From: Escherichia phage vB_EcoM_NBG2
DNA length: 64,000 nucleotides
Sequence record: NC_054925.1
Reading direction: 5' to 3' (one strand)
Positions 53,501-62,515 of this stretch are shown here, piece by piece. The position numbers and the translations under genes are program-made. Below the pieces are notes generated by a model that was given only the letters and a program-made list of their open reading frames with translations, did no database searches and had not been told where the DNA came from. The stretch's first letter is position 1; the number at the start of each line of letters is the position of its first letter.

Positions 53501-55558
53501 CTACATTTTGAACTTTTTAGACATTCCGTTAATATTAACCAAAGAAGCCAAGATTTGAGAAACTTCGTTTTCCTCTTCTTTTGATTCTTCTACAAGGAAT
53601 TGATTAAATCCAGTCATTGGACGAACTTCACCAGTTTCCATTAGATGGTCGCCATCATATACCGATTCTTCTAATTGTTCAGAAGGAGGAACGATTGTGC
53701 CTTCGATTAGATACTTGTTATAAGCAGTTTCTTTCATCATGTACGTACTCACTTTATTAATCTTCAGCAAAATTCCACGTGGTAAAATAACTTCAGCTTC
53801 TGATGGAAATCCTGATAAATGACCCGGAACGATAACTTTGATTCGCTCAGCTCCTTTAATTACCATACCTACGCTAGTTTCAGCATCTTCATTCGCATAA
53901 GCAGAGTGACTGCCCATATGCATCAAATCTTCTGCGTCAACTGAACCTTCTCCTTCACCAGAAAATACTGCACTGGAATCATCTAGGGCCATATAGTTTT
54001 TACCATACTCACCGAAGATATTTGGTTTAAGCGATGTGGATACGAAGTTCTTGAAATAGAACATTTTATTTTCAATATTATGACGTAAAGTTTTAAAGGT
54101 AACTTCTTGGCCACGGTAAAGCGTAGTTCCTGGAGGAAGAACTGATCCTTTGGCAAAGGCAGAATCCATTGTCTCGATGTGTTTAATAGCTCGTTCCATA
54201 TATTCTTCACGGGTAGAATCCGGTTTACCTAAAAGGAACGAGTTCATTTCAACATATGAATCTGCACAATAATCTTCAATTACATCAGACTCAGCTTGAG
54301 TTAATCCTTTTGGAGTTACTTCAGTACTTGCATATTCATACGCTTGAGAAGCAGACTCATTAATCAATTTATAAACGCCATTCATGACAAATTGAACAAT
54401 AGCTACCTTTTCATCTGGTGTGGCTTTAGAACCTTTAACTAAATCATTGACAATTTTCTTAATAACATCAAAGCTATTAGAAATATTAATGTCAGCAAGA
54501 TCGCTTAAAATTTTATCAGTTTTATAATCAAAAAATTCTTTATTCTTTAAATATTCTTGAGAACCTTGATATGTTATATCGCTCTGTAACTTGATAGATG
54601 GATCACGTAAACGCGCATGAGCCAATGCAATATGATTTCGGAAGCTTTCTAATTCATAATCACTAGATTTAAAACGGGAAGCACTTCTCATACCACCGAT
54701 AGCTCCTTTGCTGAAGTTTGAACCAACCTGAATAACGCCAGAGTTCATTGGTCCTTCTGCTTTATATACCGGAACTTTAGATTCAAACTCTTGATATTTC
54801 TTAGCAGCGAAGCTATCACCCTGAAGTGAAGCATCGACAGTAGAATATTGAGCTTGTGCTGCTAACCGACGACTAATTTTAGTTTTCTGAATAACAGCTT
54901 GATCCGTGCGCTTATCGTTTTCTAAAGCAATAGAAGCAGCAACAGCAACAGCTTTAGGAACAGCATTACCTGTTTTAACATCTATATAAACATCACCAAC
55001 CTTTGATTCAACTTTTGTGAATAACTCAGTTGAAATAGGAGGTACACCTGGAATGTCTTCTAAATTAGCATTTTTACGGTAAACCATAATATATGCGTAC
55101 TTTTTATCGTAATCCCAGATTTCCTTTAAAAGAACATATCGACCTGCTCCTTTAGTACGTACTAAACGGTCGGCAATAACTTGCATTTGACGAGCTGCAC
55201 CATTTGTTTTACTCTTTAGTACGCGGAATAAGCATGCGTCAATTTTGTATTGTTTCATTGTCTGAAGAGCAGTATCAAAAACCGCATTAATGACACCAAT
55301 TGGATTTCCACCCAAGTTTTTAAGTTTAACTAATGATAGTTTTTCATTGACCCCTATCATTACGATATGCATCATTTTATCGCCTGGCTTAACGTTTTTA
55401 TTTGTATCACCGCCAGAGGTGTATGTACAAAATCTAAATCCAGGAAGCACGCTTTCTTCACCGGCTTGAATAGCAAAAATTTGAGGTATTTTATGCTTAG
55501 GATTTAAGTTAACAACCGGCGCCGAAGCGCCGTCAAATAATTCTGTAATAAGTTCCAT
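53501..55558 (-). CDS. Alt-family ADP-ribosyltransferase paralog, 685 aa
   Basis: N-terminal ~270 aa closely similar to the adjacent alt gene; C-terminal R-S-E type motifs (YRGQ, FVSTSL, SEAEVILPRG). Confidence 0.8.
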   Translation of the reverse strand: MELITELFDGASAPVVNLNPKHKIPQIFAIQAGEESVLPGFRFCTYTSGGDTNKNVKPGDKMMHIVMIGVNEKLSLVKLKNLGGNPIGVINAVFDTALQTMKQYKIDACLFRVLKSKTNGAARQMQVIADRLVRTKGAGRYVLLKEIWDYDKKYAYIMVYRKNANLEDIPGVPPISTELFTKVESKVGDVYIDVKTGNAVPKAVAVAASIALENDKRTDQAVIQKTKISRRLAAQAQYSTVDASLQGDSFAAKKYQEFESKVPVYKAEGPMNSGVIQVGSNFSKGAIGGMRSASRFKSSDYELESFRNHIALAHARLRDPSIKLQSDITYQGSQEYLKNKEFFDYKTDKILSDLADINISNSFDVIKKIVNDLVKGSKATPDEKVAIVQFVMNGVYKLINESASQAYEYASTEVTPKGLTQAESDVIEDYCADSYVEMNSFLLGKPDSTREEYMERAIKHIETMDSAFAKGSVLPPGTTLYRGQEVTFKTLRHNIENKMFYFKNFVSTSLKPNIFGEYGKNYMALDDSSAVFSGEGEGSVDAEDLMHMGSHSAYANEDAETSVGMVIKGAERIKVIVPGHLSGFPSEAEVILPRGILLKINKVSTYMMKETAYNKYLIEGTIVPPSEQLEESVYDGDHLMETGEVRPMTGFNQFLVEESKEEENEVSQILASLVNINGMSKKFKM

Positions 55559-55561
55559 GAT

Positions 55562-57658
55562 TTATCCTTGAACGAACTTGTAAGGCATGTTTGTAATATC
55601 TATGCAAGACGCAATAATTCCAAGAGATGATTCTACTTTCTGTTTAACATTTGATGAAACAAATGATGCAAAGTCAACTCTGTCTTCTATTTCAATATCA
55701 TCTGTCATTGCAACTACTTCACCCGTTTCCATTAGACGGTCACCGTCATAAATTACTGATTCGGTGAGTTCTTCCGTAGTCATAACTTCAGCTTGAATGA
55801 GTTTTGTATTATTAGATGTTGTTCCGTCATTATTAGAAGCATCAGTTATTTTATTAACTTTGACCATCAATCCGCGCGGTAGAATAACTTCAGCTTCAGT
55901 TGCTATTCCGAGACTTCCTGGATATACAACATTAACTTTATGAGCTCCATCAATTGCCCATCCTATTTGAACTTTAACGTATTCAGGATTTTCTTTATAC
56001 GCTCTTATTTCGTTTGGATTAATAGTTATTCCTTCTTCATTTTTATCAACTGTTAATTCATTACGAGCTTCTGGTTCTAAAAGACCGATACCAGCATGTG
56101 TAATTCCAAAACGTCCAAAAATGATAGGAGTTAAAGAAGTAGATACAAAATTTCTGAAATAGAACACTTTATTTTTAACTAGCGCTTCGTATATAGGAGC
56201 AGTCATACTTTGAGCACGATAAACTGTAATGCCCTCTGGTATACGGTCACCATTTTCAAAAGCTGAATCTAAATTATTTATCGCAGATTCAATTTCTTTT
56301 TCACTCATTACATCATATCGTTCTGGATTGTAGCGGCCTAAAAGAAGATTATTGATGTCAGTATATCCTGATCCACAATACTCTCTAATGCCGCGCTTTT
56401 GCGATGGAGTATATTTAGAACCATCACGTGCAATGGTAATATCAATCATTGGACCTGCACCAATTCCAGAAAAGCTATAAATCATTCGTTTGAGGAATTT
56501 AGTTTTTGCTGCGTTCCAGGAATTTTTAGTTATTTCTTCCCAGACTTCATCTGGCTGCCCTTTACGAGTTTTATTATGTTTATCAAGCCAATTATCTTTA
56601 TATTCTTCAAATAATTGATTAACAGCTGCTGCGTATTTCTCTAAACATTTTATTGAAGTAGTTGGTTCATTTTTAATCGCATTAAGAATTACATCTTTAA
56701 TTTTTTCAGAAACTTCATTAACCTCACTTTTTGAAAAGAATTTATAGTCATAGTGAAGTTCATCTGCGGTTCCTTCGGCAATAATTTTTGCTGCCTTAGT
56801 TTTAGAAGCTAATGAATTAATTCCAAGCTTCATTTCTTCTGCTTCGGGAATTAAAGGAGCTGTAGCAGGTTTATTGAAATTAGCTGCGGTAGATTCATAT
56901 TTCTGGAATAATTCGCTTTCAAATCTAGAAGATTCTAATGACTGACTTTGTGCAATTGCTCTACGGGAAATTTTAACTTTAACGATAACAGCTTGGTCAG
57001 AGCGTTTATCATTTTCTTGTGCAATAGATGCTGCAATTGCCTCATTTTTAGTTACTTGAGCTCCAGTATCTTTATTGATATAAACATCGCCGACTTTCGA
57101 TTCAACCTTAGTAAAGAGCTCGGTACTAATTTCAGGAACTCCTGGAATGTCTTCTAGTGATACATTTTTGCGATGTATAAGAATATATGCGTACTTTTTA
57201 TCATAATCCCAGAGTTCCTTAAGAAGGACGTATCTGCCACCTGAACGACTACGGATAAGTCTATCAGCAATAACTTGAATTTGTCGAGCTTGACCAGCAG
57301 TTTTAGACTTAAGAATACGAAGCATACAGGCATCAATTTTATACTGACGCATCGTCTGCATTGCAACAGTAAAAACTGAATTGATGTAATTAATTGGGCT
57401 TGGACCGAGACCTTTTAATTTAGCAATTGAACCTTTAGCAGTTAATGTAAAAGGAACAATATGCATCATTTTATCGCCCATTTTTAAATCGCGATTAGTA
57501 TCACCTCCAGATGTATAGGTACATAAACGAAAGCCTGGTTGTTCAATTGCATCATCAACATGAACTGAAAAAATTTGTGGTATTTTCTTCTTTGGATTTA
57601 AGTTTGTAATCGGAAGAGTAGTATCTTCGTCAAATAATTCTGTAATGAGTTCCATCAT
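55562..57658 (-). CDS. alt: ADP-ribosyltransferase Alt, 698 aa
   Basis: R-S-E type motifs (YRAQ, FVSTSL, TEAEVILPRG); size and position next to DNA ligase. Confidence 0.85.
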   Translation of the reverse strand: MMELITELFDEDTTLPITNLNPKKKIPQIFSVHVDDAIEQPGFRLCTYTSGGDTNRDLKMGDKMMHIVPFTLTAKGSIAKLKGLGPSPINYINSVFTVAMQTMRQYKIDACMLRILKSKTAGQARQIQVIADRLIRSRSGGRYVLLKELWDYDKKYAYILIHRKNVSLEDIPGVPEISTELFTKVESKVGDVYINKDTGAQVTKNEAIAASIAQENDKRSDQAVIVKVKISRRAIAQSQSLESSRFESELFQKYESTAANFNKPATAPLIPEAEEMKLGINSLASKTKAAKIIAEGTADELHYDYKFFSKSEVNEVSEKIKDVILNAIKNEPTTSIKCLEKYAAAVNQLFEEYKDNWLDKHNKTRKGQPDEVWEEITKNSWNAAKTKFLKRMIYSFSGIGAGPMIDITIARDGSKYTPSQKRGIREYCGSGYTDINNLLLGRYNPERYDVMSEKEIESAINNLDSAFENGDRIPEGITVYRAQSMTAPIYEALVKNKVFYFRNFVSTSLTPIIFGRFGITHAGIGLLEPEARNELTVDKNEEGITINPNEIRAYKENPEYVKVQIGWAIDGAHKVNVVYPGSLGIATEAEVILPRGLMVKVNKITDASNNDGTTSNNTKLIQAEVMTTEELTESVIYDGDRLMETGEVVAMTDDIEIEDRVDFASFVSSNVKQKVESSLGIIASCIDITNMPYKFVQG

Positions 57659-57708: not shown

Positions 57709-57896
57709 TAATAATCTAGTGGTAAGAGAGTACGATATATTTCAAACTTTGGACCTTTTTCGTAGGCATCAAATGTTTCTGTAAATTTATTATAAGCATA
57801 TGCATCTACAAATTCGAGAATGACTTGTGATACCGAAGTAGAAACATCTCCACCTTCTTTTTGAGCAACGACAATTGTTTCTAAGTAAGCTTTCAT
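57708..57896 (-). CDS. hypothetical protein, 62 aa
   Basis: Complete ORF overlapping the ligase stop. Confidence 0.45.
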   Translation of the reverse strand: MKAYLETIVVAQKEGGDVSTSVSQVILEFVDAYAYNKFTETFDAYEKGPKFEIYRTLLPLDY

Positions 57897-59353
57897 AAAC
57901 CAGTTACCTCATGAAAATCACCAAATACATCCTCGAATGTATTAGCTTTAGTTTTATCTTCACGTAAACGAATCGCAATTGGAAGAAATAATTTAACGTA
58001 ATCAGTGCGACCATCAGATTTTAACCAACCATTGCATTCGCACTCTAGAATTTTTCCAATATAATAATTTTGGTTTTCCATAATGCGAGTACGGTCAAGT
58101 TCATGTGATTTTACACCGGCTTTATCTTTTAAGCCTGAACCAGCATTTACTTTAATTTTTCCACACTCTGATTCAAGAATAAATCCACCCGCTTTAGTAG
58201 GGTCTTTACGGTGAGGATAAATTCCTACAATTTTTAAATCAACATCAATTACTTCTTTAAATTTATAGAGATTTTTTGAACGAGCATTTTCCCACAATCC
58301 ATCGGTATTTTTGAGAATAATACCTTCAAGACCTTGGTCAATATATTTTTTATAAATTACCTTAGCTTCATCTAGGTTATTTACTACTTGGTTTTCAATT
58401 AAAATTACTTTATCATATCCTGATGTCATTTGTTCTAGTTTAGAAAAACGTACATCATATTTTAAACGAAACGCCGGAAGACCGTATATTTCTACCAACG
58501 GAACATAATCCCAGACCTGAAACTTCATACATTGGGCTTCTTTTTCTGAAATAGTTCCCTTTAAAGATTTATTAGCGATTCCATTAGAAGCAGTACGAGA
58601 TTCAGCTACTTCTGTGAAGTCTTTAGCTTTGCTAATTTCAGGAGTGTCAAAAAGAAAATCTAGGCCTTCTGGTTCCTTTTTAACTTGCTCATGGTATACC
58701 AATTCGCCATCAATTAACACACCTTCTGGATGAATCTGGCGGGCTTCAGCGGTCATTTTGATTAACTCTTCCTTAAGAAGATCTAATCCTAGATATTCAT
58801 TACCAGCTCGTGATAAAAGACGAACATCATCTAATTCATCTCCTCTGACTTCAGCAAAACACCGGGCTCCATCTGCTTTTAACTGCGCAAAAGCTGGAAA
58901 TTTGATATTCTTACTAATGCCTTTTTCATCATAAGAACTTGCAAGCATTTGAGGTTGTTCAGGAATTAAACCTGGCCAAACTTTGTTTGCAATAGATACT
59001 GAAGCACCGCATTCAAGGTCTCGCATCATAACTCGGCGCAAAACTTCAACATCATCCTTTTTACCATCGGTGATATATCCAGTTAATTCCTCAATTGCTG
59101 CATTTCCAGTCAATTTCCGAGTAGCTAACGTAAATTCAATAAAGTCAAGCATATCGGTAATGGTCAGCATTCCAAAACTCTGGGTAGCAATACCAGGCTT
59201 AGGCCATTTCTTGATATAATACTGTAACCCACGAGAATAAGTCAGACGATATACTCGTTTAAGCAATTCATTATCTTTATTCTTTTCAAGAATTGCTTGC
59301 TTCTGCTTAGTTGATCCAATAGATGCTATTTCATTCAGAATTTTAAGAATCAT
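57893..59353 (-). CDS. 30: ATP-dependent DNA ligase, 486 aa
   Basis: Adenylation motif I KADGARC; size and position match T4 gp30. Confidence 0.9.
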   Translation of the reverse strand: MILKILNEIASIGSTKQKQAILEKNKDNELLKRVYRLTYSRGLQYYIKKWPKPGIATQSFGMLTITDMLDFIEFTLATRKLTGNAAIEELTGYITDGKKDDVEVLRRVMMRDLECGASVSIANKVWPGLIPEQPQMLASSYDEKGISKNIKFPAFAQLKADGARCFAEVRGDELDDVRLLSRAGNEYLGLDLLKEELIKMTAEARQIHPEGVLIDGELVYHEQVKKEPEGLDFLFDTPEISKAKDFTEVAESRTASNGIANKSLKGTISEKEAQCMKFQVWDYVPLVEIYGLPAFRLKYDVRFSKLEQMTSGYDKVILIENQVVNNLDEAKVIYKKYIDQGLEGIILKNTDGLWENARSKNLYKFKEVIDVDLKIVGIYPHRKDPTKAGGFILESECGKIKVNAGSGLKDKAGVKSHELDRTRIMENQNYYIGKILECECNGWLKSDGRTDYVKLFLPIAIRLREDKTKANTFEDVFGDFHEVTGL

Positions 59354-59619
59354 TGTTCATCCTTCAGAGTTTGATTTACATCTCTATTATAAATCAATTC
59401 ATCATTAAGCTCAGGCAAAGACTTATGATATGTAGTTCTAACTTTATTTCCTTGCATCCAGTGCTTGACGTAAATGAAACCTTGCTCTACACATTTTTTA
59501 AAAATTCGTTCGTCTTTTTGAGCACGGAATTCTGGATTGCATCTAAAAAATTGATTTACGTGACCGTAATCACGTGTAGTATTACCTTCATTTTCATAAA
59601 TAGTATGAACAACAAACAT
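59350..59619 (-). CDS. hypothetical protein, 89 aa
   Basis: Complete ORF, translationally coupled to neighbours. Confidence 0.5.
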   Translation of the reverse strand: MFVVHTIYENEGNTTRDYGHVNQFFRCNPEFRAQKDERIFKKCVEQGFIYVKHWMQGNKVRTTYHKSLPELNDELIYNRDVNQTLKDEQ

Positions 59620-60464
59620 TAGAATGCTCCTTGAAAAATATTATCACCACTAGTAGGTCTATTATACAAATACTCTATGCCACCAGGTTTAATATAGTTC
59701 CATGTCTGAAACGGATATGTCTGATATGGATAATATGGATGATATAGATTATAAGGATTAAATCCAGGCGTTCTCCAGGTAGTGTTCCAAGGAAAAGAAT
59801 CGTTTTTAACCATCTTCTCAATTACATCTTTTATAGCTTTTTCACTATCAAAATTTTCTTTATTTTCCTTCGGTGAAAAAAGCTTATTTTCTACATCATT
59901 CCATGTATAAACTCGCTGAGCAGTTTTTGGAATATTGTCACGTTCTCCTCGAGCCATCCAATAAACCGGAACATTTAATATTTCACTCGCGTGGTCGCAG
60001 TGGTGAGCGAGATCGTCAATATAACAAATTACGTTATATTTCTCTTTTGCCTTTTTAAACAACTCTTCTTTTGAAGAATCATGACCACACATCATTACTT
60101 CTGAGAAGGCACCAGGAAAAAGAGCATTCAAATTAAATTGACGATTTAATAGAGCATCAATAGAATCACCCAATGCTGTAACAGCTACAAAATTATAATC
60201 TTCTTTTAATTTGTTAATTACACACAGGGCATCTTTATACGGAGACAAGTAACGAATAAAATCTGAACGATTGTATTTTTCAATTAACTTGACGCCAAGT
60301 TCTTCGTCACAATTAAAGAGTTTACCTGGAGAAATAAATTTCTCATCTTGGATCATTTTTAAAATATGTTCTAATGGAAGATTATATTTCTGAGCAAAAT
60401 AAGGAAGGCCTGATTGCCAGCTTAAACATACTCCATCAATATCAGTCAAAATAGTTGGCTTCAT
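59619..60464 (-). CDS. HAD-superfamily hydrolase-like protein, 281 aa
   Basis: N-terminal DIDGV motif I; later S/T and K...DD motifs. Confidence 0.55.
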   Translation of the reverse strand: MKPTILTDIDGVCLSWQSGLPYFAQKYNLPLEHILKMIQDEKFISPGKLFNCDEELGVKLIEKYNRSDFIRYLSPYKDALCVINKLKEDYNFVAVTALGDSIDALLNRQFNLNALFPGAFSEVMMCGHDSSKEELFKKAKEKYNVICYIDDLAHHCDHASEILNVPVYWMARGERDNIPKTAQRVYTWNDVENKLFSPKENKENFDSEKAIKDVIEKMVKNDSFPWNTTWRTPGFNPYNLYHPYYPYQTYPFQTWNYIKPGGIEYLYNRPTSGDNIFQGAF

Positions 60465-60925
60465 AGAGAGTCTCTTAATAGGTTTAACACATCAATAAAT
60501 TCAGCTTCGGTTAGTATTGTATCATCTTTTGTTAGACCACTAGCCATGCTGTGCTTCAAAACTTTTCCTTTCGAGGCTTGTAATGCATCACGAAAGCCCC
60601 TGTTTTGGATCGCTGCTTCAAAATATGCATTTGTGTATAATTCTTTCCATGCTTCGGAATATCTTGAAAACGGAGTTCCAAGCCAGAACAACGTGCCACG
60701 GTCCTGAGCTCTTGCATAAGCTCGTCCAGCTTTTTGCGCATCCAACCCGGACATCCCAAATATGCGTCTTTGCTGTTCAACATTTTTCACCTTACACCCT
60801 TGGAGGAATCCTTCGAGACCTCCAAATTGGATACCATCCATAACGAAAGGCCATTGGGCGAAATTGCTTAATGCACATGATGGCCATCTAAAATTGCTTC
60901 TTATCTCTAGCTCAGACATTTTCAA
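60461..60925 (-). CDS. NADAR / YbiA-like (DUF1768) protein, 154 aa
   Basis: Core LSNFAQWP...DG...EGFLQGCK matches the YbiA FSNFxxWP...DG...EHYFQAQK pattern as I recall it. Confidence 0.55.
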   Translation of the reverse strand: MKMSELEIRSNFRWPSCALSNFAQWPFVMDGIQFGGLEGFLQGCKVKNVEQQRRIFGMSGLDAQKAGRAYARAQDRGTLFWLGTPFSRYSEAWKELYTNAYFEAAIQNRGFRDALQASKGKVLKHSMASGLTKDDTILTEAEFIDVLNLLRDSL

Positions 60926-61118
60926 TACTTATAATTTCAACATCAGCCCAATGACCATAGCAAGGAAGACGAAATTCAACTGGCCAGTTAGGGTCCTTTT
61001 CTAATATAATAGACTTAACTTGTGGTTCTTCATGTTCATCGGTATACGGACCTTTATACGTTACTTTATATGTGACCTTAATGTACTGAATTCCAAAAAT
61101 CTTATTAATTATATTCAT
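60912..61118 (-). CDS. hypothetical protein, 68 aa
   Basis: Complete ORF in a chain of overlapping small genes. Confidence 0.4.
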   Translation of the reverse strand: MNIINKIFGIQYIKVTYKVTYKGPYTDEHEEPQVKSIILEKDPNWPVEFRLPCYGHWADVEIISIENV

Positions 61119-62072: not shown

Positions 62073-62405
62073 TTATTTTACTAATTTCCAATGCTTCATG
62101 TCAAGTTTGCCAACTTTTTTCATCTTCTCAATTAAGCGTTCGGCACGCTGGCGAGCTGTAACATAATACCATTCACCCAATTCATTTTGTTCAATTTTTC
62201 CAACGATTACTGTATTCAATTCATAAATCCAACCAGTAAAGAAATTATGAACTTGAATTGTAAAGGTGAAATCTGTTCCCATACCTTCTGTTGTTTCTAC
62301 TTCAACAATATCACCTTCAACTGCCATTAAGAACCACATAGTTTCATCATATTTACCATTGAAGCATTTAGTTTTAACTGCAGCGTTCAGATTAATCGTT
62401 TTCAT
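62073..62405 (-). CDS. hypothetical protein, 110 aa
   Basis: AAGGAG RBS; early-type promoter upstream. Confidence 0.5.
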   Translation of the reverse strand: MKTINLNAAVKTKCFNGKYDETMWFLMAVEGDIVEVETTEGMGTDFTFTIQVHNFFTGWIYELNTVIVGKIEQNELGEWYYVTARQRAERLIEKMKKVGKLDMKHWKLVK

Positions 62406-62483: not shown

Positions 62484-62510
62484 AATAAAAAAGGACTCCC
62501 GAAGGAGTCC
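62484..62510 (-). terminator. intrinsic terminator (GGACUCC-UUCG-GGAGUCC plus U6) on minus strand
   Basis: 7-bp stem with UUCG loop followed by a run of T on the minus strand. Confidence 0.65.
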
Positions 62511-62515
62511 TCAAC

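Follow-up and report, generated by a model that had tools for sequence, protein, structure and literature searches.

The adfN (30.3) gene of Escherichia phage vB_EcoM_NBG2 and the overlapping gene 30.2, which encodes a putative HAD-superfamily phosphatase

The window analysed here is a stretch of 64,000 nucleotides of Escherichia phage vB_EcoM_NBG2 (NC_054925.1), and it is part of a Tequatrovirus (T4-like) genome. The 1.9 kb around genes 30.3 and 30.2 showed 97–98% DNA identity to many Tequatrovirus genomes, and the region was collinear with T4, with alt, alt.1, 30 (ligase), 30.1, 30.2, 30.3, 30.4 … rIII and 31 all on the minus strand (Table 1). The two tandem Alt-type ADP-ribosyltransferases shared 41% identity with each other (BLASTP E 1e-162). 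A preliminary description of this DNA, made from the sequence alone, had placed a DNA ligase gene and two ADP-ribosyltransferase genes near a NADAR/YbiA-like gene, and these neighbours were found as it had said. Successive genes overlap at three junctions: the stop codon of 30.4 overlaps the start of adfN (ATGTCTGA), the four bases ATGA contain both the stop codon of 30.3 and the first codon of 30.2, and the ATG of 30.1 overlaps the stop codon of 30.2 (TAATG). Sharing of four nucleotides between stop and start codons is an arrangement typical of translational coupling. A scan for promoters and terminators gave a site count no higher than in shuffled sequence, and therefore no operon is claimed on the basis of such sites.

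Table 1 Positions of genes and features around adfN and gene 30.2 in the window
Feature	Position	Strand	Basis
Gene 30.4 (68 aa)	60912..61118	-	ORF list, sequence, T4 annotation
Gene 30.3 = adfN, NADAR-superfamily DNA ADP-ribosylglycohydrolase (152 aa), gp30.3 (His) subfamily	60461..60919	-	PF08010, T4 orthology
ATGA overlap, 30.3 stop / 30.2 start	60461..60464	-	Sequence
Gene 30.2, putative HAD-superfamily phosphatase resembling NT5C (281 aa)	59619..60464	-	Motifs, model
gp30.2 predicted catalytic core and helical cap, residues 1–196	59877–60464	-	Structure model
gp30.2 C-terminal tail, residues 197–281	59622..59876	-	pLDDT, alignment, indel relative to T4
Gene 30.1 (DUF3045, 89 aa)	59350..59619	-	PF11243, E 4.7e-62
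Gene 30, ATP-dependent DNA ligase	57893..59353	-	PF01068, E 7.8e-33; T4 gene order
alt, Alt-type ADP-ribosyltransferase (698 aa)	55562..57658	-	PF03496, E 1.6e-37
Second alt paralogue (685 aa)	53501..55558	-	PF03496, E 2.1e-20

The minus-strand ORF at 60461..60925, to which the preliminary description had attributed a NADAR signature, exists and carries that signature as SNFAQWP…DG…EGFLQGCK. The TTG at 60925 is the start of the longest possible ORF only (154 aa), and the start of 30.3 is the ATG at 60919 (MSELEIR…), as in T4 gp30.3 and close homologues. The product was identical to T4 AdfN at 144 of 152 residues (95%) over the full length. The eight substitutions apart, the two proteins share their length, the slot between 30.4 and 30.2, the residues E36, K43 and H123, and a full C-terminal helix; this helix is whole in the window protein (…TEAEFIDVLNLLRDSL), without the truncation of the RB69 type.

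Membership of gp30.3 in the NADAR superfamily rests on structure, a weak profile match and the literature. gp30.3 matched the Pfam model PF08010 (Phage_30_3) with an E value of 2.7e-68 (228.5 bits, the cut-off being 36). Pfam's NADAR model, PF08719, was not matched by gp30.3 at an E value of 0.1 or lower; it weakly matched nine of 54 gp30.3-family members and one NADAR–NT5C fusion (L037). When a profile of nine family members was compared with PDB, YbiA was the top match, although a weak one (E 0.038); the alignment spanned SNFAxWP…DG…E.F.Q..K exactly and paired the gp30.3 motif with SEHYFQAQK of YbiA. NADAR structures were the sole matches of the gp30.3 structure model. The NADAR call of the preliminary description held. 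Single-sequence searches of PDB sequences with gp30.3 or gp30.2 returned chance-level matches only, the NCBIfam search gave no useful match for either protein, and both fell in PHROGs families that have no assigned function.

An exhaustive profile search yielded 1463 representative clusters in the gp30.3 family. The motif with the catalytic Glu and Lys, E-x-[F/Y]-x-Q-x-x-K, is present in gp30.3, and an alignment of 73 diverse members showed that N19 and E36 are invariant and that S18, Q40, K43 and H123 are conserved in at least 90%. H123 was invariant in the alignment of the closer family and lies in predicted strand 122–125 of the 154-aa ORF, which is the last strand. The residues predicted to be catalytic are thus all present on alignment (codons in adfN: E36, 60814–60812; K43, 60793–60791; H123, 60553–60551). 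A His in the last strand, where YbiA has Glu and BC4488 has Asp, defines the phage gp30.3 subfamily (PMC11125620, PMC11543638). By its sequence, then, 30.3 is an orthologue of T4 adfN and a NADAR of the His subfamily.

Two other NADAR families were considered and rejected on this residue. The DarG1-type antitoxins (BC4488 family; 8bat) have Asp in the last strand where gp30.3 has His; gp30.3 also lacks their N-terminal extension and an adjacent DarT, its neighbours being 30.4 and 30.2, and T4 AdfN did not rescue uninfected cells from DarT1 toxicity, unlike the DarT1-associated antitoxins (PMC11825919, PMC11125620). The YbiA family (2b3w; Phytophthora NADAR 8bau) has Glu at the position of this His, and YbiA is connected with hydrolysis of a riboflavin intermediate and with swarming, without a link to phage counter-defence.

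The NADAR gene and its counter-defence role are already known from the T4 orthologue. Johannesman et al. (2025) mapped the ability of T-even phages to resist DarTG1 to gene 30.3, which was renamed adfN (PMC11825919). T4 and T2 became DarTG1-sensitive without adfN, and adfN supplied by expression from a plasmid rescued RB69, in which a frameshift truncates the resident allele; AdfN was thus necessary and sufficient against DarTG1 (PMC11825919). Purified AdfN stripped ADP-ribose off DarT1-modified DNA, and the E36A, K43A and truncated variants were impaired (PMC11825919). T4 gp30.3 was active in vitro on guanine-ADP-ribose (PMC11125620), for which the tested NADARs are specific (PMC11125620, PMC11543638). 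The counter-defence role put forward in the preliminary description has therefore been proven for the 95%-identical T4 orthologue (PMC11825919), while nucleotide salvage, its alternative, found no support as far as the NADAR half of the pair is concerned.

According to the mechanism proposed for the window protein, AdfN would be made early and would hydrolyse the N-glycosidic bond between C1'' of the ribose and guanine that is placed by DarT1 on phage DNA. Glu36 and Lys43 would hold the distal ribose, and His123 would stand where other NADARs have the Glu or Asp of the last strand. The products would be free ADP-ribose and a normal base, and the phage could then replicate in DarTG1 hosts. The hydrolysis mechanism is taken from the published AdfN and NADAR work (PMC11825919, PMC11125620). 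The allele in the window would be active, as judged from its sequence, and because its adfN copy is intact, the phage is predicted to resist DarTG1. AdfN-T4 showed activity in vitro and in the course of T-even infection, and did not relieve DarT1 toxicity in uninfected cells; it helped T5 and Bas25 weakly, and DNA modification was ruled out as the reason (PMC11825919). The authors proposed that a further T-even protein is needed for the full activity of AdfN (PMC11825919).

The ORF of gene 30.2 opens with MKPTILTDIDGVCLSW, which is HAD motif I. A HAD motif I (DIDGV) in an ORF overlapping the NADAR gene had been reported in the preliminary description, and the sequence, an alignment of 34 homologues and the structure model bore this out; the ORF had been called upstream, which is true of plus-strand coordinates only; relative to transcription, 30.2 is downstream of 30.3. 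gp30.2 was 96% identical to the T4 protein with one 3-residue indel. Among the 34 homologues, D8, D10, K132, D150 and D151 were invariant and T96 was conserved in at least 90%, and together these residues make up the four HAD motifs (codons in 30.2: D8, 60443–60441; D10, 60437–60435). No curated model of Pfam or NCBIfam, including Pfam NT5C, matched gp30.2, and PF00702 gave weak matches to eight of the 34 homologues (best E 3.5e-4). In the structure model, residues 1–196 (pLDDT >90) fold as a Rossmann-like HAD core in which motif I is followed by an inserted helical cap. On these motifs and this fold, gp30.2 is assigned to the HAD-superfamily phosphatases. Since motif I has the second Asp and a cap is present in the model, gp30.2 is most likely a Mg-dependent phosphomonoesterase that would act on a small nucleotide-like phosphate ester.

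Beyond the core, the tail of gp30.2 consists of one predicted helix and, after it, a segment in which Pro, Tyr and Trp are abundant; residues 225–281 had pLDDT <50 and are predicted to be disordered. The length of the tail varies, homologues of 200–220 aa have none, and a partly conserved GIEYLxxxPT motif is located close to its end. The family is widespread in T4-like phages of many hosts. Among HADs, it leans to NT5C, the 5'(3')-deoxyribonucleotidases. gp30.2 shares with the NT5C enzymes cdN and mdN (2jao, 6g2n; 3bwv) the capped HAD fold, the four motifs and D-x-D-G-V-x-x-x-[F/W]-x-x-G, and differs from them in its larger cap, its 85-residue C-terminal tail and the lack of a Pfam NT5C match. 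One homologue is named 5'(3')-deoxyribonucleotidase, and another bears the automatic name 'FMN phosphatase YigB'. In PHROGs, polynucleotide kinase (E 0.002) was a weak match of gp30.2, as was phosphoheptose isomerase; a role as a DNA-end phosphatase was set aside, because a cap as large as that in the model is typical of HADs that act on small molecules. A full-text literature search for gp30.2 found no paper. Taken together, it is very probable that 30.3 is an adfN orthologue that reverses DarT1 ADP-ribosylation and that 30.2, downstream of it, encodes a capped HAD phosphomonoesterase.

We examined how far the pairing of these two genes extends. The 4-nt overlap of 30.3 and 30.2 was found in every Tequatrovirus- or Mosigvirus-like locus examined and in a Providencia phage, and homologues of both lie side by side in Acinetobacter phages. 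In the KVP40-like Vibrio phage VH7D, the NADAR gene lies elsewhere, between the sigma-factor gene (gp55) and the nuclease genes (gp47/46), and is followed by an overlapping HAD gene whose product is a clear NT5C (E 3e-12). In a viral contig, NADAR and NT5C were joined in a single 320-aa ORF adjoining an ADP-ribosylglycohydrolase gene, and, of the best 150 family representatives, three that stand for separate clusters at 50% identity were the same fusion. With the fusion as query, 1830 clusters were obtained, and 120 of the 120 examined among the matches listed carried PF08010 together with PF06941; some lay on contigs as long as 495 kb in assemblies of Bacteroidaceae or Prevotellaceae. In a 505-aa form there is, in addition, a Tpt1/KptA RNA 2'-phosphotransferase domain (Tpt1–NADAR–NT5C), and genes for RNA ligase, HD-kinase and ADP-ribosylglycohydrolase lie next to the one that encodes it; NAD-linked repair contexts of that kind have been discussed (PMC9503650). 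The fusions thus join a PF08010 NADAR to a HAD domain in the same order as 30.3 and 30.2. They differ from the phage pair in being one polypeptide, in having a clear NT5C domain and in their context, which is RNA repair and ADP-ribosylglycohydrolase instead of ligase and alt.

The pairing was less regular at greater distance. Among 80 more distant viral loci, a gp30.2-type HAD gene was present within 3.5 kb in 14 and adjacent in three, and 60 neighbours of distant NADAR homologues included no recurrent phosphatase family, which limits the generality of the coupling. In Krischvirus the NADAR gene runs directly into the ligase gene, and gene 30.2 remains the neighbour of the ligase gene also in loci in which small genes part it from the NADAR gene. 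Comparison of gp30.2 with the fused NT5C domain gave an hhalign probability of 44–67%, suggesting that the two are remotely related. The literature search, which did not include de Souza & Aravind 2012 and the 2015 ART review, found no paper linking NADAR with NT5C or HAD. The preliminary description had called the two genes coupled: this is borne out in their overlap, their neighbourhood and the fusions, whereas coupling in function may exist and would not be universal. What appears to be new, from these sequence comparisons, is that NADARs of the gp30.3 type recur beside HAD nucleotidases and that fusions of the two are common.

The recurring pairing makes gp30.2 a candidate for the T-even factor that AdfN needs. 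In such a two-enzyme module, the HAD enzyme would clear a phosphorylated ADP-ribose product or potentiate AdfN. This possibility is entertained tentatively, and we regard it as improbable on balance. The overlap kept in Tequatrovirus- and Mosigvirus-like loci and the Providencia phage, the adjacency in Acinetobacter phages, the pairing at another locus in VH7D, and the NADAR–NT5C and Tpt1–NADAR–NT5C fusions all point towards it. Moreover, AdfN-T4 works fully in T-even infection only, RB69, which supports AdfN, carries 30.2 (PMC11825919), and, in ARG systems, phosphatases have been noted to be coupled to enzymes that remove ADP-ribose (PMC9503650). On the other hand, the shared order within Straboviridae may reflect common descent, few of the distant loci have a HAD gene nearby and their other neighbours are heterogeneous, the Krischvirus NADAR gene directly precedes the ligase gene, and gp30.2 is distant from the fused NT5C domain. 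It is likewise doubtful, if conceivable, that gp30.3-type NADARs and NT5C-like HADs form an ancient unit for the disposal of ADP-ribose adducts and phosphorylated by-products, with gp30.2 as the T-even factor. A rather plausible reading, with somewhat less than an even chance of being right, is that gp30.2 is an independent nucleotide-pool phosphatase, as are T5 Dmp and cdN/mdN, and stands beside adfN through inherited gene order. The leaning to NT5C, the homologue named 5'(3')-deoxyribonucleotidase and the constancy of the position beside the ligase gene are in keeping with this. T5 Dmp, a phage phosphatase annotated as a dNMP phosphatase, resembles gp30.2 in its HAD motif I (DLDGT) and in being annotated for nucleotides, and differs in being encoded by a pre-early gene with no NADAR connection; in the first 50 kb of T5, no gp30.2- or NT5C-type gene was found with the profiles built here, which missed Dmp as well. 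T4 recycles host dNMPs, so that a general dNMPase would be counter-productive for it, and an independent role leaves the NADAR–NT5C fusions and the pairing in the Vibrio phage unexplained.

The position of adfN near two alt genes raises the question of whether the NADAR reverses or tunes the ADP-ribosylation carried out by the phage enzymes Alt, ModA and ModB, or destroys soluble ADP-ribose immune signals. Co-expression of phage NADARs with ARTs has been described, low-molecular-weight ADP-ribose derivatives have been predicted as the targets of these NADARs (PMC9503650), and members of the family occur in RNA-repair and ARG contexts. As for alt itself, the literature records co-expression as early genes only (PMC9503650). 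Alt targets arginine in proteins, whereas the tested NADARs are specific for guanine-ADP-ribose (PMC11125620, PMC11543638), and the T4 genetics and biochemistry in favour of DarT1 reversal are direct (PMC11825919); such a role is therefore unlikely. Far less probable still is a metabolite-repair or salvage unit in which a YbiA-like enzyme and a HAD phosphatase of the riboflavin pathway act on ribosylamino-pyrimidine phosphates. YbiA was the best sequence-profile match and one gp30.2 homologue has the YigB name, but the last-strand Glu of YbiA is replaced by His, no riboflavin genes lie nearby, and removal of ADP-ribose from DNA by the T4 orthologue has been proven by experiment.

The adfN of the window is one further example of an anti-defence gene that has already been characterised, and the question posed by T4 is why AdfN is fully active in T-even infection only (PMC11825919). 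The fusion and neighbourhood data name gene 30.2 as a specific candidate for the helper of AdfN. If this were confirmed, one of the approximately 100 T4 genes without a function would gain a role, and the reversal of DNA ADP-ribosylation would prove to need a downstream phosphatase step. Confirmation would also provide a handle on the large uncharacterised family of NADAR–HAD fusions in gut Bacteroidales.

Proteins that join a gp30.3-type NADAR domain (PF08010) and an NT5C-type HAD nucleotidase in one polypeptide were found to be abundant, and both domains were present in all 120 fusion homologues among the matches listed. Contigs of up to 495 kb in assemblies of Bacteroidaceae or Prevotellaceae supplied some of these fusions. 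The deoxynucleoside-5'-monophosphatase encoded by dmp of phage T5 has a HAD motif I (WDLDGTI), and its sequence was matched by neither the gp30.2 nor the NT5C profiles constructed in this study.

In the phage NBG2 window, the C-terminal tail of gp30.2, the HAD phosphatase encoded next to adfN, was predicted to be disordered; Pro, Tyr and Trp are abundant in this tail, which ends in …GGIEYLYNRPTSGDNIFQGAF and differs from the T4 tail by a 3-residue indel. Homologues of 200 to 220 aa, including those of Mosigvirus-like phages, were without this tail, which may serve in protein docking. A putative 75-aa ATG ORF lies out of frame within adfN; in its length of 75 codons and its place inside gene 30.3 it agrees with T4 gene 30.3', annotated as 'internal translation within gene 30.3'. 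The window also carries a tandem pair of full-length Alt-type ADP-ribosyltransferase genes sharing 41% identity, whereas T4 has a single alt and the short remnants alt.-1 and alt.-2. Upstream of gene 30.8, the sequence GAGGACTCCTTCGGGAGTCCTT makes up a strong terminator-like hairpin with a T-run after it, and immediately upstream of gene 30.7 there is a sigma-70-like promoter (TTGACA, 18 nt, TAAAAT; 11/12 match). Counts of promoter and terminator sites across the region showed no excess over shuffled sequence.

Locations of the features in the window and at the loci compared
Feature	Location	Strand
NADAR–NT5C fusion gene (viral contig)	L037:3478-4440	
NADAR–NT5C fusion proteins	P0270-P0389, P0133, P0139, P0246	
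T5 dmp	L130:124-858	
gp30.2 tail (residues 197-281)	window 59622-59876	minus
ORF within adfN	window 60556-60783	minus
Alt-type genes	window 53501-55558, 55562-57658	minus
Terminator-like hairpin	window 62491-62512	minus
Sigma-70-like promoter	window 62075-62104	minus
NADAR genes with different neighbours	L038:4446-5177, L041:4444-5013, L001:615-1235	
Tpt1 fusion gene cluster	L125/L126:1132-7579	

Different neighbours overlapped or abutted gp30.3-type NADAR genes at three other loci: one encodes an HD-domain phosphohydrolase, another, in Pseudomonas phage Milchi, a DprA-like (SLOG) protein, and the third a protein whose weak DSP-PTPase matches fell under Pfam's cut-off. A three-domain Tpt1/KptA–NADAR–NT5C gene was found in a cluster with genes for a methyltransferase, an RNA ligase, an HD+AAA_33 kinase-like protein and an ADP-ribosylglycohydrolase, and together these genes resemble an NAD-dependent RNA-repair module.
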